This document shows, piece after piece, positions 48,278-63,858 of a stretch of 64,000 bases of DNA (positions within the stretch are counted from its first letter, which is position 1; each line of letters starts with the position of its first letter). Source of the stretch: Tagaea sp. Lineage in GTDB: Bacteria > Pseudomonadota > Alphaproteobacteria > CACIAM-22H2. The notes beneath the pieces are model-generated. The model worked only from the letters and a program-made list of their open reading frames with translations, did not search any database and had not been told where the DNA came from. Position numbers and translations under genes: made by a program. Where the stretch lies: contig OZ257249.1 in NCBI GenBank assembly GCA_965279565.1, positions 3,644,750 to 3,708,749 on the forward strand. The letters are read 5' to 3'.

Positions 48278-49150
48278 ATGGCCGAGATCGCCTTCTTCGG
48301 GCTCGGCCGCATGGGGACAGGCATGGCTGGCCGGCTCGTGGCCGCCGGCCATCGCGTTCGGATCTGGAACCGCAGCCGGACGCGCGCCCAGCCGCTGATC
48401 GACGCCGGCGCCATCTGGTCCGACACGCCGGCCGCCGCCGCAGCCGACGCAACCGTCGCATTCGCGATGCTGGCCGACGACATCGCCTCGCAGGCGGTAT
48501 GGCGAGGCCCGGAAGGCGCGCTATCCGCCCTGTCCCCCGGCGCGTTCGCAGTCGAATGCTCGACCCTTTCGGCAGCCCACGTGGCTTCACTGGCGGCCGA
48601 CGCCAAGGCCCAAGGCCTGCGCTATGTCGACTGCCCGGTGACGGGCTTTCCCACACACGCGGCGGCCGGCACGATGACGTTGCTGGTCGGCGCGTCGCAG
48701 GCCGATCTCGACGAACTGCGCCCGCTCTTCGGCACGCTCGCCGGCACGATCCGGCATTTCGGCGACGTGGGGACCGGTACGGCCTACAAGCTGATGGTCA
48801 ACCTGATGGGGGCCGTTCAGATCGCCGCGCTGGCCGAGGGGATCGCGCTTGGGCGCCGCCTCGGGCTCGACGACAAGGCGGTCGGCGAGGCGCTTGCCGC
48901 CGGGGCCGCGGCAAGCCCGCAGGTCGTCCAGAACATCCCGCGCATGCTCGCCGGCGACTGGGACCGCGACCAGGTATTCACGTCGACGCTGCGGCACAAG
49001 GATGCCGCCTATGGCGCTGCACTCGTGAAGTCTTCAGGGGTCGCGGCGCCGCTCGGGCTCGCCGCGACGGCGTGGTTCGAAGCCGCGAAAGCGCTCGATC
49101 CGGATGCCGACCAGTCGATCGTGCTGAAGGCGATACTCAGCGCTTCATGA
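48278..49150 (+). CDS. 3-hydroxyisobutyrate dehydrogenase-like NAD(P)-dependent oxidoreductase
   Basis: GLGRMG, WNRS, ECST, DCPVTG and YKLMVN motifs. Confidence 0.88.
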   Translation: MAEIAFFGLGRMGTGMAGRLVAAGHRVRIWNRSRTRAQPLIDAGAIWSDTPAAAAADATVAFAMLADDIASQAVWRGPEGALSALSPGAFAVECSTLSAAHVASLAADAKAQGLRYVDCPVTGFPTHAAAGTMTLLVGASQADLDELRPLFGTLAGTIRHFGDVGTGTAYKLMVNLMGAVQIAALAEGIALGRRLGLDDKAVGEALAAGAAASPQVVQNIPRMLAGDWDRDQVFTSTLRHKDAAYGAALVKSSGVAAPLGLAATAWFEAAKALDPDADQSIVLKAILSAS

Positions 49151-50429
49151 TCGCGCCGGCGATGTCGGCGCCGTCGCTCTTGGCGAGCGAAAGGTCGACA
49201 TCGAGCAGCACGGCATCACGCAGCACGGCGCGCGTGAAATTGGCGTCGAGCACGTTGGCGCGGTGCAGGTTGGCACCGGCGAAATCGCAGTCCTGGAAAT
49301 TCGCGTCGGCGAGATTGGCCGGCCACAGGCGGCCCGAAGGCTGGCCGTTGGGCATCGGCATGTTGACCGGTGCGAGCGAGGCCTTGGCGAAGGTGGCGCC
49401 CTGCGCATCCGCCCGGCTCATGTTGACGCCGTTCAGGTTCGCCTCCGAGAAGTCGGCGCCCTTCAGGTCGGAGCCCGTCATGTCGCACATGATGAGCTGC
49501 GCCTTGACGAGCTTCGTTCCCTGGAGATTGGCGCCGGTCAGCGTGGCGCCGGACAGGTTGGCATTCGAGAAGTCGAGACCCTTGAGGTCGGCCTTCGTGA
49601 AGTCGGCGCGACGGCCGACGCGGCCCTCCGACTTGATCCAGAGCTGGTGGTCGCGCAGCTGCGCCTGGACGGCGTCGGACAGCGCCTCCTGCTGGGCGGC
49701 CATGTTGGCGCCCTGCGTGTTCGCGCGCTGCATGTCGACGCCGTTGAGATTGGCGCCGATCAGGTTCGCGTCGCGGAAATCTGCCCCGTCGATGATCGCA
49801 CCCGAAAGATCGACGCCCTTCAGGTTGGCGCCCGCGAGATTGGCGCCCATGATGTTGGCGCCCTTCAGCGTCGCGGTCTCCAGATTGGCCCGCGCCATGG
49901 ACGCCATCTCGAGATTGCAGCCGGCCAACCGCGCACCCGAGCAGTCGGCTTCCGTCAGATTGGCCTTCGACAGGTCGGCGCCCTGCGCGTTCGCCTTGGC
50001 GAGGATCGCCTGTTCGAGATCGGAGCCCTGCAGGTCCGCAGAGACGAGCGCGATGCCGTCGCCGCGTCGCGACTGCATCAGCGTGCCGCCGCGAAGGTCG
50101 GCGCCACGGAGATTTGCACCGCGCATGCGGCAGCCGCGCAGATAGGCGCCGCGCAGATCGGCCTTGGAAAGGTTCGCCAGGCTCAGGTCGGCACGATCGA
50201 AGTTCACGGCGAAAAGATCGGCTTCCGACAGGTCGGCGCCCGCCAGCACGGCCCGCGAAAGGTTGGCGCCCGGGAGCTTGGCCTGCCGCAGGTTCGCCCG
50301 CGAGAGCGAGATGCCATGCATGTCCGCCAAGGTCAGGTTGGCGCGAACGCCGCCAGGCTTGCGGTTGAGGAACTTCTCGTGATCCGAGAGGATCTTGACG
50401 ATTTCCTGCGGTGACAGCGGACCCGGCAT
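49137..50429 (-). CDS. Pentapeptide-repeat protein (two modules)
   Basis: ILSDHEKFL...GVRANL and LRDHQLWIKSEGRVGRRADF, each followed by long A(D/N)LxG runs. Confidence 0.92.
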   Translation of the reverse strand: MPGPLSPQEIVKILSDHEKFLNRKPGGVRANLTLADMHGISLSRANLRQAKLPGANLSRAVLAGADLSEADLFAVNFDRADLSLANLSKADLRGAYLRGCRMRGANLRGADLRGGTLMQSRRGDGIALVSADLQGSDLEQAILAKANAQGADLSKANLTEADCSGARLAGCNLEMASMARANLETATLKGANIMGANLAGANLKGVDLSGAIIDGADFRDANLIGANLNGVDMQRANTQGANMAAQQEALSDAVQAQLRDHQLWIKSEGRVGRRADFTKADLKGLDFSNANLSGATLTGANLQGTKLVKAQLIMCDMTGSDLKGADFSEANLNGVNMSRADAQGATFAKASLAPVNMPMPNGQPSGRLWPANLADANFQDCDFAGANLHRANVLDANFTRAVLRDAVLLDVDLSLAKSDGADIAGAIMKR

Positions 50430-51838: not shown

Positions 51839-52804
51839 TCAGCCGGCGAGTTTCGTCGGCTTCGTCGACCTGCCGATCGCCGCGAGCTTGCGCTCGAGAC
51901 GCTGCATCAGGCTGTCGAGCTCCTTGTGCTCGTCCGCATCCATCGCGTGGCCCGGTGCGCGCAGATGCGCCGACTTGATGACGCCGCGCCGGCGCAGCAC
52001 TTCCTTGCGCACGGCGAGCCCGAGACCCGGCTGCTGCTCGTGGCGCACGATCGGAAGATAGACGTCGTACAGGTCCTCGGCCTCTTCCGGCTTTCCCTTC
52101 AGGAAGAGATCAACGACCTCGACCAGCATCTCGGGATAGGCAAAGCCCGTATTGGCGCCGTCGGCCCCACGGCGCATCTCCTGCGGCAAATGGAGTGCCG
52201 AATTGCCGACGAGGATCGAGACGCGGCGCTTGCGGCTGCCGTCCGCGTCGGCCTTGCGGACTTTCGTCAGCTTGCGCAGGCCGGGCACGTCCTCGTGCTT
52301 CAGCACCTTCATGCTGTCGTAGCGGGCGAACAGGCGGTTGATCAGCGAGACGGACATGTGCACGTTCGTCAGCTGCGGATAGTCCTGCAGGACGATCGGC
52401 GTGTCGCCGATCTCGCGCACGACGGCATCGTAATAGCCCTCGATCTGCTCTTCGTTCTTGAGCCCGGCGATCGGCGCCACCATCACGCCGGCGGCGCCCA
52501 TGTCCATGACCTTCTTGGTGAAGTTCCCGAGATTCCGGTTGCCGGCCGACGAGACGCCGACGATGACGGGAACCCGGCCGTTCACGCGCTTCATCACGCG
52601 CGATACGAAATCCGAGGATTCCTGGGGACTGAGCTTCGGCGCCTCACCCATCACGCCCAGGATCGTCATGCCGGTCACCCCGCATTCGAGGTAGAAGTCG
52701 GTCATGCGCTCGGCGCTGTCGAGATCGAGCTCGCCATTGTCGGTGAACGGCGTCGCCGCAATGATGTAGACACCCTTTGCGGTTTCGTCGAGCCGTTGCG
52801 CCAT
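51839..52804 (-). CDS. Dihydrodipicolinate synthase family lyase/aldolase
   Basis: ATPF, LGVMGEA, LQDYP and Schiff-base Lys in VLKHED; SD GGAGG before ATG 52804. Confidence 0.87.
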   Translation of the reverse strand: MAQRLDETAKGVYIIAATPFTDNGELDLDSAERMTDFYLECGVTGMTILGVMGEAPKLSPQESSDFVSRVMKRVNGRVPVIVGVSSAGNRNLGNFTKKVMDMGAAGVMVAPIAGLKNEEQIEGYYDAVVREIGDTPIVLQDYPQLTNVHMSVSLINRLFARYDSMKVLKHEDVPGLRKLTKVRKADADGSRKRRVSILVGNSALHLPQEMRRGADGANTGFAYPEMLVEVVDLFLKGKPEEAEDLYDVYLPIVRHEQQPGLGLAVRKEVLRRRGVIKSAHLRAPGHAMDADEHKELDSLMQRLERKLAAIGRSTKPTKLAG

Positions 52805-52886: not shown

Positions 52887-54338
52887 ATGGCAGCCTATGA
52901 CCGGGTGATCCGGGGCGGAAAACTGGCGACTTCGGGCGACTCGTACGTCGCCGACATCGGCATAAAGGGCGGGAAAATCGCGGCGATCGGACACGATCTG
53001 CCGCGCGGCGACGACGAGACCGACGCGCACGGCCGGATCGTCACGCCCGGCGGTATCGACAGCCATGTGCATATCGCACAGGTCTCCGGCATGGGTGTCT
53101 GGACCGCCGACGACTTCGAATCGGGCACGCGCTCGGCGATGTGCGGCGGCACCACGACGACGATCTCGTTCGCCGCCCAGCATCGCGGCCAGTCGCTCCG
53201 CAAGGTGGTCGACGAGTATCACGCGCGCGCGGCGGGCAAGACCTATATCGACTACGCGTTCCACCTTATCGTCTCCGACCCGACCGAACAGGTGCTCGGG
53301 CAGGAACTTCCCGCCCTGATCGCCGATGGGCTGACGTCGTTCAAGATCTATACGACCTACGACGCGCTGAAGCTGTCGGACCGGCAGATCCTCGACATCC
53401 TGGCGCTCGCCCGCCGCCACAACGCGATGACGATGGTCCATTGCGAGAACCACGACGCGATGACCTGGCTCGCGGAGAAGCTGATTGCTTCGGGCCGCAC
53501 GCGCCCCAAATACCACTGCTTCAGCCACAACATGCCGGTTGAGCGCGAGGCGACCCACCGCGTGATCGCGCTTGCCGAGATGCTCGATACGCCCGTGCTG
53601 ATCGTCCACGTGTCCGGGCGCGAGGCGATGGACGAAATCCGCCGTGCGCGCGCCCGCGGCCTGAAGGTCTATGCGGAGACGTGCCCGCAATACCTGTTCC
53701 TGACCCAGGACGATCTCGACAAGTCGGGATTCGACGGCGCCATGTGCATGTGCTCGCCGCCGCCGCGCGACAAGGTCAATCAGGAGTATGTCTGGGCCGG
53801 CCTGCGCGACGGTCTGTTCGATGTCTACTCGTCCGACCATGCGCCCTACCGTTTCGACGACCCGCAGGGAAAAAAGGTCGCGGGCACGAACGCGAACTTC
53901 AAGAAGATCCCCAACGGCGTGCCGGGCCTCGAGATACGCATGCCGCTGCTGTTCGCCGAGGGCGTCCTGAAAGGCCGGCTGTCGCTCGAGCGGTTCGTCG
54001 CGGTCACGGCGACGAACCCCGCCAAAGTCTACGGACTCTATCCGCAGAAAGGCGCCATCGCCGTCGGCGGCGACGCCGATCTCGTGGTCTGGGACCACGA
54101 GCGTGAGCTGACCGTGAGCCAGAGCCTCCTGCACGACGCGATGGATTACACGCCTTACGAAGGCATGAAGGTGAAGGGCTGGGCCGATCTCGTCTTCTCG
54201 CGCGGCGAGCTCGTCGCCAAGGGCGGCAATCCGGTCGCAAAGCCCGGGCGTGGCCGCTATCTTGCACACGGTCCCTCCGAGTGGTCGAAACCGCTCGGCC
54301 GCTCCATCTTCCCCGAAGACATATCGGATATCTTCTGA
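52887..54338 (+). CDS. hydA: Dihydropyrimidinase / D-hydantoinase
   Basis: PGGIDSHVH, GGTTT, SFKIYTTY, VHCEN, IVHVS, ETCPQYL, SSDHAPY and IPNGVPG motifs. Confidence 0.93.
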   Translation: MAAYDRVIRGGKLATSGDSYVADIGIKGGKIAAIGHDLPRGDDETDAHGRIVTPGGIDSHVHIAQVSGMGVWTADDFESGTRSAMCGGTTTTISFAAQHRGQSLRKVVDEYHARAAGKTYIDYAFHLIVSDPTEQVLGQELPALIADGLTSFKIYTTYDALKLSDRQILDILALARRHNAMTMVHCENHDAMTWLAEKLIASGRTRPKYHCFSHNMPVEREATHRVIALAEMLDTPVLIVHVSGREAMDEIRRARARGLKVYAETCPQYLFLTQDDLDKSGFDGAMCMCSPPPRDKVNQEYVWAGLRDGLFDVYSSDHAPYRFDDPQGKKVAGTNANFKKIPNGVPGLEIRMPLLFAEGVLKGRLSLERFVAVTATNPAKVYGLYPQKGAIAVGGDADLVVWDHERELTVSQSLLHDAMDYTPYEGMKVKGWADLVFSRGELVAKGGNPVAKPGRGRYLAHGPSEWSKPLGRSIFPEDISDIF

Positions 54339-55297
54339 TGCCGCCAAAACAGCTCGTTCCCCGTATCGTCAACGTCGGTGCCGCCCAGATGGGCCCGATC
54401 GCGCGCGCCGAAACCCGCGCATCCTGCGTCGAACGGATGATCGCCATGCTGCGGGAAGCGTCTCGCAAGAGCTGTCAGATCGTCGTGTTTCCGGAGCTGG
54501 CGCTGACGACCTTCTTCCCGCGCTGGTTCATGCCGGACTGGCGCGAGGTCGACGCGTTCTTCGAGACCGAGATGCCGAACGCGGCGGTCAAGCCGCTGTT
54601 CGACGAGGCGAAGCGCCTGAAGATCGGATTCTATCTCGGTTATGCCGAGAAGACGCCCGAAGGACGGCGTTTCAACACGGCCATCCTCGTCGACCGCGAG
54701 GGCGCCATCGTCGGCAAGTACCGGAAGATCCATCTTCCTGGCCACGCCGAGAACGAGCCCGAGCGCCCGTTCCAGCATCTGGAAAAGCGCTATTTCGAGC
54801 CCGGCGACATCGGCTTTCCTGTCTGGCGGACGATGGGCGGGATCGTCGGCATGGCCGTGTGCAACGACCGGCGCTGGCCCGAGACCTACCGCGTGATGGG
54901 GCTAAAAGGCATGGAGTTGATGCTGCTCGGCTACAACACGCCGGCCATCAACGGCTGGGCGATGGTCCACTCGGCACCGGAGCCCGAGCATCTGCGCCAG
55001 TTCCACAACCACCTCGTCATGCAGGCCGGCGCCTATCAGAACTCGACCTGGGTCGTCGCTACGGCCAAGGCCGGTATCGAAGAAGGCTGCTCGCTGATTG
55101 GCGGCAGTTGCATCGTGGCGCCCACCGGCGAGATCGTGGCGCTGGCCCGTTCGGTCGCCGACGAGCTTATCGTCGCCGACTGCGACCTCAGCCTCTGCAC
55201 CTACGGCAAGGAAACGACCTTCGCGTTTTCAAAGCACCGGCGGATCGAGCATTACGGATTGATCGCCAGCCAGACGGGCGTCGTCGAGCCGCAATGA
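54338..55297 (+). CDS. N-carbamoyl-D-amino acid amidohydrolase (nitrilase family)
   Basis: VFPELALTTFFPRW, YRKIHLPGH, QHLEKRYFEPGD and CNDRRWPE (Glu-Lys-Cys triad); TGATG-coupled to hydA. Confidence 0.92.
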   Translation: MPPKQLVPRIVNVGAAQMGPIARAETRASCVERMIAMLREASRKSCQIVVFPELALTTFFPRWFMPDWREVDAFFETEMPNAAVKPLFDEAKRLKIGFYLGYAEKTPEGRRFNTAILVDREGAIVGKYRKIHLPGHAENEPERPFQHLEKRYFEPGDIGFPVWRTMGGIVGMAVCNDRRWPETYRVMGLKGMELMLLGYNTPAINGWAMVHSAPEPEHLRQFHNHLVMQAGAYQNSTWVVATAKAGIEEGCSLIGGSCIVAPTGEIVALARSVADELIVADCDLSLCTYGKETTFAFSKHRRIEHYGLIASQTGVVEPQ

Positions 55298-55929
55298 AAG
55301 ACTATGACTTCGCAGAAACGTCCCCGTCCGTCCGATACAAGCTGCTGGTCGGTTCGGTCGTGCCCCGGCCAATCGCGCTGGTCACCACGCTCGACGAGGC
55401 CGGCATCGTCAACGCCGCTCCGTTCTCGTTCTTCAACGTCCTGAGCCACGATCCCGCCATCGTGGCACTGGGTGTCGAGCGCCGCGCCGACGGGCGCCCG
55501 AAGGACACGGTGCGGAACATCGAGACGTCCGGCGAGTTCGTCGTCAACCTCGTCGACGAGGCGATGGGACCCGGCATGAATGTCTGCGGCGCGGATTTCG
55601 AACCGGGCATCGACGAACTTGAGCTTGCCGGATTCACGCCCGCACCGTCGACCAAGGTGAAGGCCCCGCGCATCGCCGAGGCACCCGTGGCACTCGAATG
55701 CCGGCTGCGCCACGACGTCCGTCTTGGCGACGACAACAAGCGCGCGATCCTGCTCGGCGAAGTCGTGGCGTTCTCGATCCGGGACGATCTCGTCGATCCG
55801 GCCAGCGACCGCGTCCATACCGACCGCCTGAACCTGCTCGGACGCCTTGCCGGCGGTGGCTATGTGCGCCTGACCGACCGGCTGGAAATCCCGCGCGTCA
55901 CGCCCGAGACTCTCGGCCGCAAGGCGTAG
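55294..55929 (+). CDS. Flavin reductase-like (FMN-binding split barrel) protein
   Basis: VVPRPIALV, NAAPFSFFN, KDTVRNI...GEFVVN and GRLAGGGY motifs; ATGA overlap. Confidence 0.88.
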   Translation: MKDYDFAETSPSVRYKLLVGSVVPRPIALVTTLDEAGIVNAAPFSFFNVLSHDPAIVALGVERRADGRPKDTVRNIETSGEFVVNLVDEAMGPGMNVCGADFEPGIDELELAGFTPAPSTKVKAPRIAEAPVALECRLRHDVRLGDDNKRAILLGEVVAFSIRDDLVDPASDRVHTDRLNLLGRLAGGGYVRLTDRLEIPRVTPETLGRKA

Positions 55930-55932
55930 CCG

Positions 55933-56592
55933 CTACCAGCCGATCTGCACGCGCGCGATGGCCATGCCGACCGCCGCCTGCGTCGGCTCGACGACCGGAA
56001 TTCCGACCGCCTCCTGGAGACGGTCGCGGTAGCGCGCCATGCCAGCACAGCCCATGACCAGCACGTCGGCGCCGTCGCGTTCGCGCAGATCGCGCCCGAC
56101 TTCGATCATCCGCGCCAGCGTGCGCGCGTCGTCCGAAAGCTCGGCGACCGTCAGCCCGACCGGCCGGTCGCCCGCGAACCGCGCCTCGAGCCCGCGCGCA
56201 CCGACATAGCGCAGATGGCGCGGCACGGAACGCGGCAGGATCGCAATGATCCCGAAGCGCTCGCCCAGCGTCAGTGCCGTCAGCATCCCGCATTCGGCGA
56301 TGCCGAGAACCGGCTTCTTGGTCGCCTCGCGTGCGGCATAGAGCCCGGGATCGCTGAAGCAGGCGATCACGAACGCGTCGCAGTCATTGTCCCGGGTCGC
56401 GACGGTCCGGCTCAGCGGGCCGACGACGCTTTCCACATGCGCCTGCGTCTCGATGCCCGGCGGGCCTTCGGCAAGCGTCGTGCACTCGATCTCGGGACCG
56501 CCGGCCGTGCGCATCGGCGCAACGGCTGCATCGATGCCGGCCGTCACGCTCCGGTTCGAGTTCGGATTGACCACGAGGATGCGCTTGCCCAT
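55933..56592 (-). CDS. Hydantoin racemase (Asp/Glu/hydantoin racemase family)
   Basis: VVNPNS, IACFSDPG and MGCAGM (two catalytic Cys), PVVEPT. Confidence 0.9.
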   Translation of the reverse strand: MGKRILVVNPNSNRSVTAGIDAAVAPMRTAGGPEIECTTLAEGPPGIETQAHVESVVGPLSRTVATRDNDCDAFVIACFSDPGLYAAREATKKPVLGIAECGMLTALTLGERFGIIAILPRSVPRHLRYVGARGLEARFAGDRPVGLTVAELSDDARTLARMIEVGRDLRERDGADVLVMGCAGMARYRDRLQEAVGIPVVEPTQAAVGMAIARVQIGW

Positions 56593-56603
56593 CTGTCCAG
56601 CTC

Positions 56604-57275
56604 CTAGCGGGATGCCACGTGCCTGTGCTCCAGCCGCGACAGGAACCGCACGGCCGGCCACAGCAGTACCAGATAGATCAGGGCCGCCGCCACGATCGGC
56701 GTCGGATTGTAGACCAGCGACTGGGCGAGGCGTGCCGTGTGCAGGAGTTCGCCCAGCGCCACGACCGACGCGATCGTCGTCAGTTTGATGACTTCCAGCG
56801 TATTCCCGATCAGATCGGGCAGCACGTTCCGGGTTGCTTGCGGAAGGATCACGTCGCGCATCGTCTGGAAGCTCGAAAGCCCCGTCGAACGCGCGGCTTC
56901 CCATTGCCCGCGCGGCACGCTCTCGATCCCTGCGCGGAAGATCTCGCCGTAGTAGCTCGACGCATTGAGCAGGAAGGCGATCGTCACGGCCGCGAACGCC
57001 GGCAGGTCGATCCCGACGAACGGCAGCCCGAAATAGATGAAGATCAGCAGCACGAGCGGCGGAAACGCGCGGAAGAAATCGACATAGACGACGAGCAGCA
57101 CGTTGAGCCAACGCCGCCGCAGGCTCCAAAGCCACGCGACGGCAAGGCCGCCGGCAAGCCCCGCGGGAATCGTGATGAGGCAGAGCACCACGGTCATGCC
57201 CAGCCCTTCGAGCATGAAGGGCAGCACGCGGATCAGAATATCGACATTGAAGAACGTCTCGAGGATCTGGTCCAT
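56604..57275 (-). CDS. Polar amino acid ABC permease
   Basis: FFRAFPPLV and EAA loop EIFRAGIESVPRGQWEAARSTG. Confidence 0.92.
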   Translation of the reverse strand: MDQILETFFNVDILIRVLPFMLEGLGMTVVLCLITIPAGLAGGLAVAWLWSLRRRWLNVLLVVYVDFFRAFPPLVLLIFIYFGLPFVGIDLPAFAAVTIAFLLNASSYYGEIFRAGIESVPRGQWEAARSTGLSSFQTMRDVILPQATRNVLPDLIGNTLEVIKLTTIASVVALGELLHTARLAQSLVYNPTPIVAAALIYLVLLWPAVRFLSRLEHRHVASR

Positions 57276-57280
57276 GCCGG

Positions 57281-57964
57281 TCACCGCTTCCACGCGAAGC
57301 GCGTCTCGATCCAGCGCCCGAAGACCACGACCGGAATGAAGATCACGAGGTAGGCCGCGGCACCGAGCGTCAGCGGCGTGGGATTGCCCGCGAGGCTGGC
57401 CGCCGAGCTCGCCTGGCTGACGATTTCGGAGAGTGCCACGACCGAGCCGAGTGCCGTCCCCTTCGTCACCGCGATGACCCGGTTGACCAGCGGCGGGATG
57501 GTCATCCGGACGGCCTGCGGCAGCACGACCCAGCCGAGCGTCGCGGCGAAGCCGAGCCCGGTCGAGCGGGCGGCCTCCCACTGTCCCTTGGGCACGGCGA
57601 GGATGCCGGCCCACCAGATCTCCTCCGCGAATGCGGCGAGCACGAGCGACAGCGACAGCCATGTCGCCGTAAACGCGCTCATCGGCAGATCGATATACGG
57701 GAACGCAAAGAACAGGATGATGATGACGACGAGCGGCGGCAGCGCACGCAGCATGTCGACGAACACCACGATCGCCACGTTCAGCGAAGCTATCCGGAAC
57801 GCGCGCAGGCTCGCCAGCAGCAGGCCGAGCGTCAGCCCGGTCGCGACGACCGCGAGCGAGACCAGACATGTCACCCAGACGCCGTCGATGATCCGCGGCG
57901 CCCATTCCGCCGCCACCGCCGGATTGAAATAGGCGAAAACGAGGCGGTTCAGCCCGTCGTCCAT
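57281..57964 (-). CDS. Polar amino acid ABC permease
   Basis: LRALPPLV and EEIWWAGILAVPKGQWEAARSTG. Confidence 0.92.
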   Translation of the reverse strand: MDDGLNRLVFAYFNPAVAAEWAPRIIDGVWVTCLVSLAVVATGLTLGLLLASLRAFRIASLNVAIVVFVDMLRALPPLVVIIILFFAFPYIDLPMSAFTATWLSLSLVLAAFAEEIWWAGILAVPKGQWEAARSTGLGFAATLGWVVLPQAVRMTIPPLVNRVIAVTKGTALGSVVALSEIVSQASSAASLAGNPTPLTLGAAAYLVIFIPVVVFGRWIETRFAWKR

Positions 57965-57968
57965 CGGT

Positions 57969-58724
57969 TCAGCCGTGGCCGCCGACGAGGCGCGCGACGA
58001 ATTCCCGCGTGCGCGCTTCACGGGGGCGCCCGAATATCTGGTCGGGCGGCCCCTGCTCGATGATCCGGCCGCCTTCCATGAAGATGACCCTGTCGGCCGC
58101 GGCACGCGCGAACGCCAGCTCATGGCTGACGACCACCATCGTCATTCCGGCCGCCTTGAGTGCCCGCATCACCGCAAGCACCGAGCCGACGAGTTCGGGA
58201 TCGAGCGCCGATGTCGGCTCGTCGAAAAGGACGATCTTCGGGTCGAGCGCCAGCGCCCGAGCGATCCCGACGCGCTGCTGCTGGCCGCCGGAAAGCTCGT
58301 TTGGATACGCCCCCGCCTTGTCCGACAGTCCGACCTGGTCGAGGGCCGCAAGTCCTCGCGCCTCGGCGGCACCGCGCGTCAGTCCCTGCACCCGGCGCAG
58401 AGCTAGCGTCACGTTCCCGAGCGCCGTCATGTGCGGATAGAGATTGAAGGACTGGAACACCATGCCGACCTTCTGCCGGACCTTGTTCAAGTCCGTTCCG
58501 GTGGCGACGATGTCCTGCCCGTCGACGATGACGGCACCGGAGTCCGGTTCCTCGAGGCGGTTGCAGCAGCGCAGCAGCGTGCTCTTGCCCGATCCCGACG
58601 GACCGATCACGAACACGAGTTCGCGCGGCCGCACGGCCAGATCGATCCCGTCGAGGACCTTCAGCGGACCGTAGCTCTTGTGGAGTGCGACAAGCTCGAG
58701 AATGGGCGGAGACTGATCGGGCAT
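57969..58724 (-). CDS. Polar amino acid ABC ATP-binding protein
   Basis: GPSGSGKST, LSGGQQQRV, FDEPTSALD and SHE motifs. Confidence 0.94.
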   Translation of the reverse strand: MPDQSPPILELVALHKSYGPLKVLDGIDLAVRPRELVFVIGPSGSGKSTLLRCCNRLEEPDSGAVIVDGQDIVATGTDLNKVRQKVGMVFQSFNLYPHMTALGNVTLALRRVQGLTRGAAEARGLAALDQVGLSDKAGAYPNELSGGQQQRVGIARALALDPKIVLFDEPTSALDPELVGSVLAVMRALKAAGMTMVVVSHELAFARAAADRVIFMEGGRIIEQGPPDQIFGRPREARTREFVARLVGGHG

Positions 58725-58743
58725 CAATTTCCGCCCCGCATCC

Positions 58744-59589
58744 TCAGCGGCAGACGATCGCAACCGGCGTCTCGTCGTAGCCCGGCATGCCCGCGACGCC
58801 ATGGCCGGCCGCGATGTTGACGGTTACGGAATCGGGCGCCGGATCGTAGCCGAACCACTTCTTGTGCAGCCGCGCGAAGGCGCCGTCCTGCTTCATGCAC
58901 TTGACGACCATCGAGATTCGATCGCGGCCGGCCTTGTCGTCCGGACGGAACGGGATCGCCCAGACAAGGCCCGTCGAGATTTTGTAGCCGAGGCGCAACT
59001 GCTGGGCGTTCTGCTTGACCGCCCATGCAGCGACCGTGTTTCCGGTCAGGTTCGAATCCGCACGGCTCGCGAGAACGGCCTGCACGGCTTCCGGGTTCGA
59101 TCCGTAGACGTCGTAGGTGAACCCGTAGCGCGACGCGTTCGCCTGCGCCCAGCTCTCGTAGGCCGAACCGCGGTTGACGGAGACCTTCTTGCCGCGAAGG
59201 TCCTCGAGGACCTTGATCTCGGGCTGGTTGCGCCGCGTGACGAACTGGAAATCCGTGTTGAGATAGCCTTCGGTGAAAAGCAGGTTCCGCGCCCGCTCTT
59301 CGGTCACCGTCGTGGGGGCCGCGAGGAAATCGAAGCGCTTCGCGAGCAGGCCCGGCACGAGCCCCGAGAACTCCTGCGCCACGACCTCGATCGGCCGGCC
59401 GAGGCGCTTGCCGATCTCGTTGGCCATGTCGACATTGAAGCCTTCGATGCCGCCGCCGAGCTTCGGCATGGCGTGCGGCGCGAACGTGCCGTCGAGACCC
59501 GCGACGAGTTTCTGCGCCGATGCGGGCGCGCCGACGACGACCGAAAGCAGGACCGCGATCGCGGCCGCGGACATCTTGTTCATTGCCAT
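58744..59589 (-). CDS. Polar amino acid ABC substrate-binding protein (family 3)
   Basis: Signal peptide, DGTFAPHA, GFNVDMA and TVTEERA motifs. Confidence 0.92.
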   Translation of the reverse strand: MAMNKMSAAAIAVLLSVVVGAPASAQKLVAGLDGTFAPHAMPKLGGGIEGFNVDMANEIGKRLGRPIEVVAQEFSGLVPGLLAKRFDFLAAPTTVTEERARNLLFTEGYLNTDFQFVTRRNQPEIKVLEDLRGKKVSVNRGSAYESWAQANASRYGFTYDVYGSNPEAVQAVLASRADSNLTGNTVAAWAVKQNAQQLRLGYKISTGLVWAIPFRPDDKAGRDRISMVVKCMKQDGAFARLHKKWFGYDPAPDSVTVNIAAGHGVAGMPGYDETPVAIVCR

Positions 59590-59668
59590 GTTGATCCTCA
59601 CCGTCTGGAGCGCCCCGGGCATTAGGGCCCGAAAAGCAGCGATGCGCAAGAATTGCGCGCGCTCTCCC

Positions 59669-59684
59669 AGCAAACGGCGTGCCT
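59669..59684 (-). promoter_or_regulatory. Candidate sigma54 -24/-12 promoter for the ABC-racemase operon
   Basis: Minus strand AGGCACGCCGTTTGCT matches GG-N10-GC with GGCACG and TTGC cores. Confidence 0.6.
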
Positions 59685-60315
59685 ACTTCGTGCCGAAAAG
59701 CCGGTCGCCGGCGTCGCCGAGGCCCGGGATGATGTAGCCGTGGTCGTTCAGGTGGCTGTCCTGGGCGGCCGCATAGATCGTCACGTCCGGATGGTTCGCG
59801 TGCATCTCCTTGACGCCTTCCGGAGCGGCAAGCAGGCAGACATACTTGATCGACGTGGCGCCCGCCTGCTTGACCCGCGTGACGGCCGCGACGGCGGAAT
59901 GCCCCGTCGCAAGCATCGGGTCGAGCACGAGCACATCGCGTTCGGCCACGTCCTCGGGAAGCTTGCAGTAATACTCGACCGCCGCCAGCGTCTGCGGATC
60001 GCGGTAAAGCCCGATATGGCCCACGCGCGCCGAGGGAAGGATCTCCAGCATGCCATCGAGGATGCCGTTGCCGGCGCGCAGGACGGAAACGAGGCAGATC
60101 TCTTTGCCCGCAAGAGTCGGTGCGCGCATCTTCTGGATCGGCGTCTCGATCTCGACCGTGGTCAGTGTCCGGTCGCGCGTCGCCTCGTAGGCCAGAAGCA
60201 TCGCGATCTCGCGCACGAGCCGGCGAAAATCGCGCGTCTCCGTCTCCTTGCGGCGAAGCTGGGTCAGCTTGTGCTGGATAAGCGGATGACCAACCACATG
60301 CAGCGAACCCGACAT
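59683..60315 (-). CDS. upp: Uracil phosphoribosyltransferase
   Basis: [33 protein letters not shown] and [17 protein letters not shown] motifs. Confidence 0.97.
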
Positions 60316-60331
60316 TGCCCCACTCCCCCGG

Positions 60332-61558
60332 CTAGAAGATCGTCCCGTCGCTCTCGACCGCCAGCGGCGGCTTTCCACCCGCACGCCGCTCTGCGGCGAT
60401 GCGTCGGCCGGCCGTCCAGGTCCCGCCCTGCAGCACCTTCGCGAGCGGGAACTCCTCGGCCGACATCCCGAGCTTCTCGCGCACGAGATCGGCTACCCGA
60501 TCGAGCAGCACGACGGTAAGCGCCCGCCATTCGACGATCAACTCGCTGTTGGCGGCATAGGCCCGGCCGGCGGCCGTCGGGTCGCGAAGCGCCACGGTGC
60601 CCGTATCGAGGAACAGGCCGCCGTTGCGGTATTCCGGCAACCCAGTCAGTGCGTCCAACTCGACGATCTCGAGACCGAGCGATTCCAGCGGCTCGAGCAG
60701 CGAATAGGTCAGCCACTGGCTGAGCTTGTGGAAGGGAACCAGCCCCTCACCCGCCGCCGGATGCTCGCCGACATCGCCGACATTCACGCCGTCGATGACG
60801 ACGCGTGCCGGCCAAGCGTCCGCAAGACCGTCGAGCAGCACGGCAAGGATGCGTGCTGCCGGCAGCTTGCCGTCGCGCGCCTGCCCGAGCAGCAGATCGG
60901 CAAGGTTCCCGATGCGCGGCTGCGCGCCGAAAAGGTCCGGTCGCTTGCCGATCGCGGTCCCGAGACTGCGCATGAGTGCCGCGCGCCCTTCGAGACCGAC
61001 CAACTTGTTGCTCTCGCCGACCTTGAAGCCCTTGGCGAGCCGATCGCCGTCGAAGCGGCGCAGGCCGGCCGTGTCGGCCCGGTACGGGTTGTCGAACGAC
61101 GCCGAGAAGGCGCCGGACGCGAACATGTCGAAGCTGGCGACGGCCAGCCCCTCCGATCGCGTGAAGACGCCGTCCTTGGTGCGGTACTTCCAGTCGGATC
61201 CGGCTCCGGCGTCGAGCAGCACGCTCGTCACAGCAAGATCGATCGCGACGCGTGCGCGCTCGAGCTTGTCGTCGGGCAGGTTGGCGACGAGGCGCTTCCA
61301 GCGGTCGATGCCGCCGACATGGAAGTGGCGCCAGCGCGAATGGTACGGAATGTCGAGCGACGGATAGTCGCGCCGTATCGAACTGACGGTCAATTCCGCC
61401 GCCCGGTCGAGCTTGGCGAGATCGACGGTGAAGTGGGCCGACTTGCCGCGCGAAGCCGCCTCGAAGATCTCGCCGGAACGGCGGCGGATCGTGGCGGGAT
61501 CGCGAAGCAGGCGCACGCGCGCGCTGGGCCCGGCGATTTCTGGACGATCGAGGGGCAT
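60332..61558 (-). CDS. URC4/Urg3 family protein (DUF1688)
   Basis: [52 protein letters not shown] and VLQGGTW motifs. Confidence 0.88.
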
Positions 61559-61559
61559 G

Positions 61560-62852
61560 TCAGCTATCGAGCCCGCGGCCCTTGGTGTCGGCCAGCTTGC
61601 GCGCGTCGGGAAGCGTACCGCCGGTGAAATAGCCCGCGGCCTTTTTCGCTTCCATCTCGACGCTCGCATCCGCAGGCACGAGGCCTTCTGGAATCTCGAC
61701 CTGCTCGACGATTTCGATGCCGCTGCGCACGAGCGCCTCAGACTTCATGTTGCTCATCGACGCGAAACGGTCGATACGCGAAATTCCCAGCCAATGGATC
61801 ACGTCGGGCATCAACTCCTGAAAACGCATGTCCTGTACGCCGGCGACGCACTCGGTCCGCTTGAAATACGTGGCGGCCTGGTCGCCGCCCTCCTGGCGCT
61901 TGCGCGCGTTGTAGACGAGGAACTTGGTGACTTCGCCAAGTGCCCGGCCTTCCTTGCGATTGTAGACGATGAAGCCCACGCCGCCCTGCTGGGCCGTCTC
62001 GATCGCCACCTCGATGCCGTGCGCCAGATACGGCCGGCACGTGCAGATGTCCGATCCGAACACGTCCGAACCGTTGCATTCGTCGTGGACGCGGCCGCCG
62101 ATCTTGGTCTTCGCGTCGCCGAGCTTCGACACGTCGCCGAAAAGATAGACGGTCGTGCCGCCGATCGGCGGCAGGAACACCTTCATGTCGGGGCGCGTGA
62201 CGAGTTCGGGGAACATGCCGCCGGTGTATTCGAACAGGCCGCTGCGAAGCTCGGTTTCGGCGATGCCGAAGCGCTTGGCAATTCCGGGCAGATACCAGAC
62301 GGGCTCGAGCGCCACTTTCGTCGTGCGCACGTCGCCGTTCGCCTCGACGATCCGGCCGTCCGGCTTCAACCGGCCCGCCGCGATCGCATCCTGCAGTTCG
62401 GGCATGTTGATGTGCGCGCGGGTCACCGCGATCGTCGGACGAATGTCATAGCCTTGCGCGAGCAGGCCACTGAAAACGTCGCCCACCATGTGCCCGTACG
62501 GATCGAGGCTGACGATCTTCTCCGGATCGGACCACTGGGCGAACGGCCCGATCGGTTCGGCGGGTGCGGTATTCGTCAGGTCGGGCTTGTGCAGGGGCGA
62601 GAGCGCGCCGGCGGCGACCGCGAGCGCGCGGTACAGCATGTAGCTGCCCGAATGGGTGCCGATGACGTTGCGGTGCTGCGGATTGCCCACGGTGCCGATG
62701 ACGGGCCCGCGCGCCTGCGCGCCACCGGCCCCCCATTCGATCTTGAGAGGCTGCGGCCCGCTCTTGGACGGGTGCGAAGTCAGGACGATGTGCTTGGCGG
62801 ACTTTGGCGGCTCGGCCGCGAACTTCGTCGCGGACGTGTCCGGGGAAGGCAT
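61560..62852 (-). CDS. URC1/Urg1-like GTP cyclohydrolase II family protein with N-terminal extension
   Basis: RGPVIGT, HSGSY, RVHDECNGSDVFGSDICTC (Zn ligands), RKEGRALGEVTK, QDMRFQ and SMSNMK motifs. Confidence 0.9.
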   Translation of the reverse strand: MPSPDTSATKFAAEPPKSAKHIVLTSHPSKSGPQPLKIEWGAGGAQARGPVIGTVGNPQHRNVIGTHSGSYMLYRALAVAAGALSPLHKPDLTNTAPAEPIGPFAQWSDPEKIVSLDPYGHMVGDVFSGLLAQGYDIRPTIAVTRAHINMPELQDAIAAGRLKPDGRIVEANGDVRTTKVALEPVWYLPGIAKRFGIAETELRSGLFEYTGGMFPELVTRPDMKVFLPPIGGTTVYLFGDVSKLGDAKTKIGGRVHDECNGSDVFGSDICTCRPYLAHGIEVAIETAQQGGVGFIVYNRKEGRALGEVTKFLVYNARKRQEGGDQAATYFKRTECVAGVQDMRFQELMPDVIHWLGISRIDRFASMSNMKSEALVRSGIEIVEQVEIPEGLVPADASVEMEAKKAAGYFTGGTLPDARKLADTKGRGLDS

Positions 62853-62934
62853 ATGGTATCTCCGACTTCCTAAAAAGGGACTATGCCGCATTTAACGGCA
62901 ATTCGGAAGTCCAAACGCTAACCGATTGATTTGC

Positions 62935-63858
62935 CTAACTCGTAGACCGGGTATCGGAAGTGCCCTGAACCGCCATCGTCCCGGATCGCCCGTCGATGCC
63001 TCCCTGGATCAGATCGGCGACGGGAACGGGTCGGCCTGCCAGCGCCTTCGCCTCGTCCGCCAGATTGACGAAGCGCACGCCGCGCGCGGCGGCGGCGTCC
63101 AGAAACCGGGTGAACCAGTCAGCATAGTGCATGCCCTCGAGCTCGGCATGTCCGGTGAATGCGTTGAGCGCGCCGGGAACAAGCCGGTCGAGATAGATGT
63201 CGATCAGCCGGTCCTCCGGGAATTCCGGGCGGCCGAGCAATTCGTCCAGCGTCGGTAGCGTCGTCGGCATCTGGAGCGTGCGGAAAAGACGGCTGCCGAC
63301 GCGCGGCATGAACGGTCCTGTTCCGCGCGCGTCCGATGCGTAGTCGAGGCCGGCCTCGTCGTAGACCTCCAGGCTCTTGGCATCGGCCTGCCAGCCGGCG
63401 GCACCGGCCGTGCGCGCGGGCGAACCGAAAACGCGCTCGTAGGCGGCGCGCGCCTTGGCAAAGTCGGTGCGGACGGCGTCGATCGTCATGCCGGCCAGTC
63501 CGTCCTGCCAGCGCACATGATCCCAGCAATGGATGCCGGTCTCGTGGCCGGCATTCGAGATCGCGCGCATCGCGTCGGCGTTCCGCCTGCCGATGTCGGG
63601 ACCTGGCAGCAGCACGCCGTTCATAAGCGTGCGCAAGCCATAGAGCTTCACGACGCTTGTGCGGCTGACCTTGGCGAAGAAACCGGGCCGGAAAACCCGC
63701 CGGATCGCGCGCCCGGTATTGTCCGGCCCCAGCGAGAACAGGAACGTGCCGCGGATCGCATGGCGGTCGAGCGACCGGGCCAGTGGTGACAGCCCCTCGC
63801 GCGTCCCGCGATCGGTATCGACATCGATCTTGATCGCGAGCCGGGCGGGTTCGGCCAT
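62935..63858 (-). CDS. arnD: ArnD-like polysaccharide deacetylase/deformylase
   Basis: KIDVDTDRGTREG, FLFSLGPDNTGRA, HCWDHVRWQD, PTTLPTLDE and HAELEG motifs. Confidence 0.8.
   Translation of the reverse strand: MAEPARLAIKIDVDTDRGTREGLSPLARSLDRHAIRGTFLFSLGPDNTGRAIRRVFRPGFFAKVSRTSVVKLYGLRTLMNGVLLPGPDIGRRNADAMRAISNAGHETGIHCWDHVRWQDGLAGMTIDAVRTDFAKARAAYERVFGSPARTAGAAGWQADAKSLEVYDEAGLDYASDARGTGPFMPRVGSRLFRTLQMPTTLPTLDELLGRPEFPEDRLIDIYLDRLVPGALNAFTGHAELEGMHYADWFTRFLDAAAARGVRFVNLADEAKALAGRPVPVADLIQGGIDGRSGTMAVQGTSDTRSTS

Follow-up and report, generated by a model that had tools for sequence, protein, structure and literature searches.

The window analysed here is a stretch of 64,000 nucleotides from Tagaea sp. 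(NCBI GenBank assembly GCA_965279565.1, contig OZ257249.1, positions 3,644,750 to 3,708,749 of the forward strand), and our subject is a group of three genes lying on its minus strand at positions 62852-59683, which belong to the families of the uracil catabolism (URC) genes known from yeasts. The three open reading frames (ORFs) show the high third-position G+C content of real genes and translate into proteins of 430, 408 and 210 residues. The first, urcA (61560..62852), is a URC1 homologue carrying a GTP_CH_N domain and a GTP cyclohydrolase II-like domain, as assigned from Pfam, NCBIfam and the identity to the structure 7EEV. The second, urc4 (60332..61558), belongs to the DUF1688/URC4/urg3 family and encodes a predicted Qng1-like helix-hairpin-helix (HhH) N-glycosylase (PF07958, an AlphaFold2 (AF2) model and Foldseek). 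The third, upp (59683..60315), is the equivalent of URC6 and encodes a uracil phosphoribosyltransferase (UPRT; TIGR01091, NF001097 and tblastn). A single nucleotide separates urcA from urc4 (TGA c ATG), and urc4 is followed by upp after 16 bp. A preliminary description of this DNA had listed a GTP-cyclohydrolase-II-like gene with zinc-ligand cysteines, a DUF1688 gene and upp, with the same two gaps, under the label of a URC-type uracil catabolism operon (URC1-URC4-UPRT). Translation and family matches agree with it in every detail, and the label is correct, as judged by these family matches and by the conserved gene order. We consider it very probable that the three genes form a bacterial URC operon and that the neighbouring module of hydantoinase and ATP-binding cassette (ABC) transporter genes is a separate unit. 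The operon is an ordinary example of an already known system.

Upstream of urcA, a leader of 82 nt (62853..62934, minus strand) extends between the stop codon of an ArnD-like gene and the urcA start, with a Shine-Dalgarno sequence (GGAG) 7-8 nt ahead of the urcA ATG (62852). In an alignment of the leaders, this ATG and Shine-Dalgarno sequence are kept in close relatives, a conservation restricted to genomes that are near-identical anyway. Scans of the leader and of the 55-64 kb region with Rfam (E <= 1) and with consensus promoters and terminators gave nothing usable. A sigma-54-like TGG..TTGC in the leader was dropped, its spacing being wrong as judged by eye.

The UrcA protein matches PF12471 over residues 20-208 (276 bits) and PF00925 over residues 248-385 (47 bits), and it passes the NCBIfam model NF005536 with 753 bits against a cut-off of 403. 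Its nearest solved relative, PDB 7EEV/7EJ3, is retrieved by phmmer with 613 bits and aligns to residues 7-429 with 65% identity and 2 gaps. We take 7EEV/7EJ3 to be the UTP cyclohydrolase UrcA published by Zhang, Wei, Lin et al. (2021), the link between the entry codes and that paper being our assumption. The zinc motif of the Tagaea protein, C259-X10-C270-X-C272, aligns to Cys54/65/67 of E. coli RibA, and its Y314 and R343 align to RibA Y105 and R128. Catalytic roles of RibA Tyr105 and Arg128 were reportedly described by Ren et al. in 2005. According to a review (PMC9499338), UrcA catalyses a two-step hydrolysis of UTP in uracil breakdown; the review also cites a study of the UrcA mechanism (Ouyang et al., 2022), and PMC12507026 gives Zhang, Wei, Lin et al. 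(ACS Catal 2021, 11:8895) as its reference for the URC pathway. By homology, the Tagaea UrcA is predicted to be a UTP cyclohydrolase, the activity having been demonstrated in the 65%-identical homologue. The statement in the preliminary description that the bacterial homologues are little studied is thus outdated for URC1, a bacterial homologue at this identity having been crystallised and characterised as UTP cyclohydrolase UrcA.

The relationship of UrcA to GTP cyclohydrolase II raises the alternative that the URC1-like gene is merely a second GTP cyclohydrolase II of the riboflavin pathway. The match to PF00925 at 47 bits would fit this, as would the name "GTP cyclohydrolase II" borne by both NF005536 and the entries 7EEV/7EJ3. 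Nevertheless, the RibA models score the protein at 43-55 bits only, far from their cut-offs of 148-206, its nearest solved relative is published as a UTP cyclohydrolase, and the gene is consistently linked to URC4 and upp rather than to rib genes. In addition, a canonical GTP cyclohydrolase II is encoded elsewhere in the genome (contig C1:3492589-3493059, PF00925 at 138 bits), and therefore the urcA copy is not the riboflavin enzyme. Taken as a whole, this evidence makes a second RibA exceedingly improbable.

We know of no chemistry assigned to DUF1688/URC4 since 2008, and the Pfam label of the family is still that of a domain of unknown function. The Tagaea protein, encoded by a single-copy gene, matches PF07958 with 482 bits over profile positions 2-420 of 420 and has more than 8000 database relatives, many of them labelled "URC4/urg3 family protein" by NCBI. 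At the sequence level, neither phmmer nor a 13-sequence profile retrieved a solved structure, and PF07958 was the only Pfam match at E <= 10. An AF2 model built on the 13-sequence alignment was confident (pLDDT 90.7, pTM 0.89), and a Foldseek search of this model against the PDB returned eleven significant matches, all of them Qng1/QNG1 chains (E 1e-10 to 5e-9, probability 1.00, TM 0.62-0.79 with TMt 0.73-0.79), the first match outside this family having an E-value of 0.35. Qng1 is an HhH-fold N-glycosylase that frees queuine from queuosine-5'-monophosphate, a 5'-mononucleotide, and its catalysis involves Asp231, Lys199, which stands just after a beta-hairpin, and the protein's own C-terminal carboxylate (PMC9881137). 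In URC4, according to the 13-sequence alignment and the model, an invariant lysine (Lys278) directly follows a predicted beta-hairpin, two acidic residues (E309 and D318) are invariant, and so is the extreme C-terminus (SDGT[IV]F). From these invariant columns and the predicted topology, K278 and either E309 or D318 may be the counterparts of the Qng1 lysine and aspartate.

Since its predicted fold is Qng1-like, URC4 would be an N-glycosylase, and the model suggests that it hydrolyses (5-phospho)ribosylurea to urea. We lean slightly towards the more specific proposal that URC4 is a divergent sister family of the Qng1 N-glycosylases, which would hydrolyse 5-phosphoribosylurea to urea and ribose-5-phosphate (R5P) by means of K278, E309/D318 and the C-terminal carboxylate. 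A literature search found no paper naming both the URC4 and the Qng1 families, and PF10343 (DUF2419), the Pfam family of Qng1, had no match in 401 genomes of the phylum nor in the control genomes. If true, such chemistry would be a property of the whole family and not special to the Tagaea locus, and the URC route would become a cycle recycling ribose phosphate, with phosphoribosyl pyrophosphate (PRPP) entering at Upp and R5P leaving at URC4. The Qng1-like fold makes the function of URC4 directly testable.

The upp product scores 274 bits against TIGR01091 (cut-off 208) and 289 bits against NF001097. In yeast, URC1 and URC6 (UPRT) turn uracil into ribosylurea and 3-hydroxypropionate, on genetic evidence URC4 converts ribosylurea to urea, and cells need the URC genes in order to grow when uracil is their sole source of nitrogen (PMC7530994); in S. 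pombe, the orthologues urg1, urg2 and urg3 are clustered and uracil-induced (PMC2174524). By analogy, the route in Tagaea would start with the condensation of uracil and PRPP to UMP by Upp, followed by phosphorylation of UMP to UTP by kinases that we assume to be housekeeping enzymes. UrcA, a zinc-dependent relative of GTP cyclohydrolase II, would then, by homology, open the uracil ring hydrolytically with release of pyrophosphate to yield a ring-opened nucleotide, from which the three-carbon fragment would be released as malonate semialdehyde, as the yeast end-products urea and 3-hydroxypropionate suggest. From the remnant, 5-phosphoribosylurea or ribosylurea, URC4 would cut urea, leaving ribose-5-phosphate or ribose, a step deduced from its fold. 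The genome encodes enzymes for both remaining products away from the operon: urease (alpha subunit, 197 bits) could convert urea to ammonia, and the unlinked methylmalonate/malonate-semialdehyde dehydrogenase MmsA (709 bits, above its cut-off) could convert malonate semialdehyde to acetyl-CoA.

The trio is widespread in bacteria. A pattern scan with one genome per species retrieved 599 stretches encoding URC4, of which the best 80 were kept (hereafter the 80 URC loci; here and below, compared loci are numbered with an L). They span Alpha-, Beta- and Gammaproteobacteria, Cyanobacteria, Myxococcota and Planctomycetota. URC4 is directly preceded by URC1 in 74 of them and directly followed by upp in 61, the gene order being unchanged. 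URC4 is encoded by 21 of 300 genomes sampled from the same class. A conserved URC organisation in fungi and bacteria is already noted in a paper citing Andersen et al. 2008 (PMC3869809). Clustering the ORFs of the 80 loci revealed as recurrent neighbours a PnrA/Bmp-type nucleoside ABC importer, an Amidohydro_3 protein, an NMT1-type binding protein and a ureidoglycolate-lyase-like gene; the genes of the hydantoinase module were not among them. The importer, the amidohydrolase and the NMT1-type protein fit a role in pyrimidine use. In the cyanobacterial and other loci outside the Tagaea-like lineage (L009-L081), the trio is often flanked by these same three genes, with a small TPR protein encoded upstream in 22 loci, and the Amidohydro_3 protein is possibly a cytosine-deaminase-like enzyme.

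On the other side of upp in Tagaea, a block of ABC importer and racemase genes (55933..59592, minus strand) starts 93 bp after the upp gene on the same strand, and its order recurs elsewhere in genomes without URC genes nearby. It encodes a family-3 solute-binding protein of a polar-amino-acid-type importer (SBP_bac_3, 59592-58744), an ABC ATPase (~58740-57969) and two permeases of the polar-amino-acid type (~57910-56604), all assigned with Pfam and NCBIfam, and an Asp/Glu/hydantoin racemase (~56592-55933) with 101 bits to the hydantoin racemase 3QVJ. Convergent on the racemase, a second block on the plus strand (52887..55929) likewise lies outside the URC operon. It comprises hydA, a D-hydantoinase/dihydropyrimidinase (52887-54338; 416 bits to PDB 1NFG), a CN_hydrolase annotated as N-carbamoyl-D-amino-acid hydrolase, or carbamoylase (54338-55297), and a flavin-reductase-like gene (~55300-55929, PF01613). 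Divergent from hydA lies a lyase of the dihydrodipicolinate synthase (DHDPS) family (51839..52803, minus strand, PF00701 at 115 bits). The co-oriented importer and racemase and the convergent hydA and carbamoylase are thus found as the preliminary description had them.

The carbamoylase scores 421 and 383 bits against the N-carbamoyl-D-amino-acid hydrolases 6LEI and 1FO6, in contrast to 79 and 50 bits against beta-ureidopropionases. On these scores, it is assigned as an orthologue of N-carbamoyl-D-amino-acid hydrolase and not as an enzyme for URC intermediates, which argues against the earlier idea that ring-opened URC products could feed it. Judged by its gene content, the module stands apart as a unit for the catabolism of 5-substituted hydantoins or N-carbamoyl-D-amino acids. 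The DHDPS-family gene is probably a member of it rather than a bystander; among 19 other alphaproteobacterial genomes, five (L118, L119, L120, L124 and L134) have a gene of this family, with 55-65% identity, together with hydA, carbamoylase and racemase. The flavin-reductase-like gene, of the RutF family, adjoins the D-carbamoylase in five other genomes, and the module shows no obvious flavin-dependent partner for it. Outside the window, at C1:4016493-4019786 of the same genome, a carbamoylase paralogue with 59% identity and a paralogue of the Asp/Glu/hydantoin racemase with 28% identity are some 2 kb apart, which suggests a second cluster of the hydantoin or carbamoyl-amino-acid type.

The preliminary description had gone further and proposed that the trio, the ABC importer, the racemase, hydA and the carbamoylase make up one integrated 11-kb pyrimidine/ureide nitrogen-scavenging system. 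The two units do adjoin, the ABC/racemase genes are co-oriented with upp, no terminator was detected between them by the consensus scan, and the same arrangement is found in a relative whose URC4 is 74% identical (L087). Furthermore, URC4 and the racemase module co-occur in 8 of the 300 genomes where 1.4 would be expected (odds ratio 13.7, p = 1e-5; phylogeny and genome size uncorrected). In contrast, any gene of the module is present in only 3 of the 80 URC loci: a carbamoylase in L005, a hydA-like gene (56%) in L015 and a racemase (69%) in L078, those of L015 and L078 standing after upp. The reciprocal search gave the same picture. Of the 300 genomes, 20 encode an orthologue of the module racemase (53-73% identity). 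For 19 of these orthologues, the genes within 10 kb were compared: the carbamoylase lies near 13 of them and hydA near 12, and the counts for the ABC genes, for the flavin reductase and for the DHDPS-family gene are 5 apiece. In none of the 19 cases were URC1, URC4 or upp found within this distance, and therefore the module is a self-standing unit. Unlinked modules elsewhere had been named beforehand as grounds for giving up the integrated system, and in all eight genomes possessing both units these are found on separate contigs or at a distance of about 1.1 Mb.

The comparison of close relatives points in the same direction. They share both flanks with Tagaea, the arn-like operon on one side and the DHDPS-family gene, dinB and a pentapeptide-repeat gene on the other. 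Between these flanks, L087 holds the full module, L084 only hydA and the carbamoylase, L005 only the carbamoylase, and in L085 and L004 upp is followed directly by the DHDPS-family gene. All of them keep the trio. The module is dispensable, having been partly or wholly lost in close relatives; it stands beside a URC operon only in the Tagaea-like lineage. The site between upp and dinB shows at least four states among close relatives whose flanks are otherwise syntenic, which looks like the stepwise loss of a dispensable cassette. No repeats or insertion scars were found at the junctions after the upp stop when the relatives were compared.

As for the co-occurrence, URC4 and the racemase module each also co-occur with urease in the 300 genomes, with an odds ratio of about 5 (again uncorrected for phylogeny and genome size). 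We did not use it as functional evidence, because these corrections are lacking and both units track urease similarly, and we read it as a sign that the same large-genome lineages typically carry both accessory nitrogen-scavenging units, not that the two form a functional unit. Given also the orthology of the carbamoylase with N-carbamoyl-D-amino-acid hydrolases and the polar-amino-acid type of the importer, an integrated system is very improbable, and the hydantoinase module should not be annotated as pyrimidine catabolism.

A related possibility is that hydA and the CN-hydrolase catalyse the final two reactions of reductive pyrimidine degradation, as dihydropyrimidinase and beta-ureidopropionase, so that the locus would bring two uracil routes together. 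D-hydantoinases generally hydrolyse dihydrouracil too. In addition, HydA passes the NCBIfam cut-offs for dihydropyrimidinases (NF009941, 761 vs 647 bits; TIGR02033, 551 vs 393 bits), and in L084 the hydA and carbamoylase pair stands alone beside upp. Nevertheless, a PreA/PydA-type dihydropyrimidine dehydrogenase was not found in the genome, the sole DHO_dh-family gene above cut-off leaving no such enzyme, and therefore a reductive route is not evident. The CN-hydrolase sides clearly with the D-carbamoylases in the scores given above, and elsewhere the pair travels with the hydantoin racemase and the amino-acid-type importer. We regard the reductive interpretation as quite improbable and retain that of a URC operon beside an independent hydantoinase module.

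Several observations weigh against this preferred reading. The upp gene is the only UPRT copy in the genome (one tblastn match), so that the operon may also serve salvage, and there is no dedicated uracil transporter in the operon. The fungal way of using urea, by urea amidolyase (URC3,5), has no counterpart, as no urea carboxylase reached the cut-off in the genome (best 574 vs 1304 bits). The substrate of URC4 may be either the phosphorylated or the free ribosylurea, and the relation between URC4 and Qng1 holds at the level of the fold only (14-18% identity). The undetected terminator between upp and the ABC genes makes read-through into the module possible, and the public runs containing this stretch are only low-depth metagenome-like contigs, uninformative on transcripts and operon boundaries.

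The first two of these points would also suit a trio devoted mainly to pyrimidine nucleotide homeostasis or salvage, for example the removal of uridine nucleotides that are damaged or in excess, rather than to obtaining nitrogen from external uracil, and a S. pombe urg1 deletion grows normally with and without uracil (PMC2174524). In contrast, the yeast genes are required when uracil is the only nitrogen source (PMC7530994), nucleoside importers adjoin the operon in other bacteria, and urease is present in 12 of the 21 URC4-positive genomes compared with 68 of all 300. A function mainly in homeostasis or salvage seems unlikely to us.

Further along the flanks, the ArnD-like deformylase upstream of urcA (62935-63858, minus strand; 233 bits, below the equivalog cut-off) corresponds in the relatives L084, L085 and L087 to the last gene of an arn-like operon. 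In these relatives, the operon lies directly upstream of urcA and includes an ArnT-like protein, EamA, a glycosyltransferase 2, a formyltransferase and an epimerase/dehydratase; it probably modifies lipid A with an aminoarabinose-like sugar. At the opposite end, a gene at 49137-50429 (minus strand) encodes a protein of 430 residues consisting almost wholly of pentapeptide repeats and adjoins dinB. This pairing is kept in L084, L085 and L087; L005 has the pentapeptide gene, but no dinB was found beside it.

The clustering of bacterial URC genes was reportedly described together with the pathway in 2008, and the first enzyme is said to have been crystallised and assayed in 2021. The locus itself therefore adds little; its value lies in the negative knowledge on the hydantoinase module and in the testable, family-wide hypothesis on URC4. 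It also illustrates neatly how a catabolic cassette that is dispensable can lie next to a conserved operon.

Compared with the known systems, the Tagaea UrcA has the same two-domain architecture as the 7EEV/7EJ3 enzyme and an identical RVHDECNGSDVFGSDICTCRPYL zinc motif; the two differ in the organism of origin, and we found no structural or sequence feature distinguishing them. The URC1, URC4 and URC6 genes of Lachancea (Saccharomyces) kluyveri (Andersen et al., J Mol Biol 2008, 380:656) and urg1-urg2-urg3 of S. pombe are likewise physical clusters of these three families, with the same predicted products, urea and a C3 acid. In contrast to the yeast genes, the Tagaea trio is a true operon with gaps of 1 and 16 bp, and neither a URC2-type regulator nor a uracil permease is linked to it. 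Its urea is probably used via urease instead of the URC3,5 urea amidolyase, and its C3 product probably via MmsA instead of the URC8 reductase.

The Qng1/QNG1 proteins (DUF2419; PDB 7U07, 7U91 and 7UGK; PMC9881137) are the sole significant structural neighbours of the URC4 model. Both are monomer-sized, two-lobed, helical proteins with a beta-hairpin just before a conserved lysine, and the invariant C-terminus of URC4 recalls the catalytic C-terminal carboxylate of Qng1. In contrast, the two families share only 14-18% identity, URC4 is longer by about 90 residues, and its leaving group would be urea, whereas that of Qng1 is a purine-like base.

Finally, the neighbouring module resembles the hyu clusters of Agrobacterium, Sinorhizobium and related bacteria (PDB 1NFG, 1FO6/1ERZ, 6LEI and 3QVJ), as it has orthologues of D-hydantoinase, carbamoylase and racemase, and it recurs as a unit in other Alphaproteobacteria. 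It differs from them in its transport system, a polar-amino-acid-type ABC importer. Classical hyu clusters have an NCS1 permease. The Tagaea module also adds to the hyu gene set the flavin-reductase-like and DHDPS-family genes.

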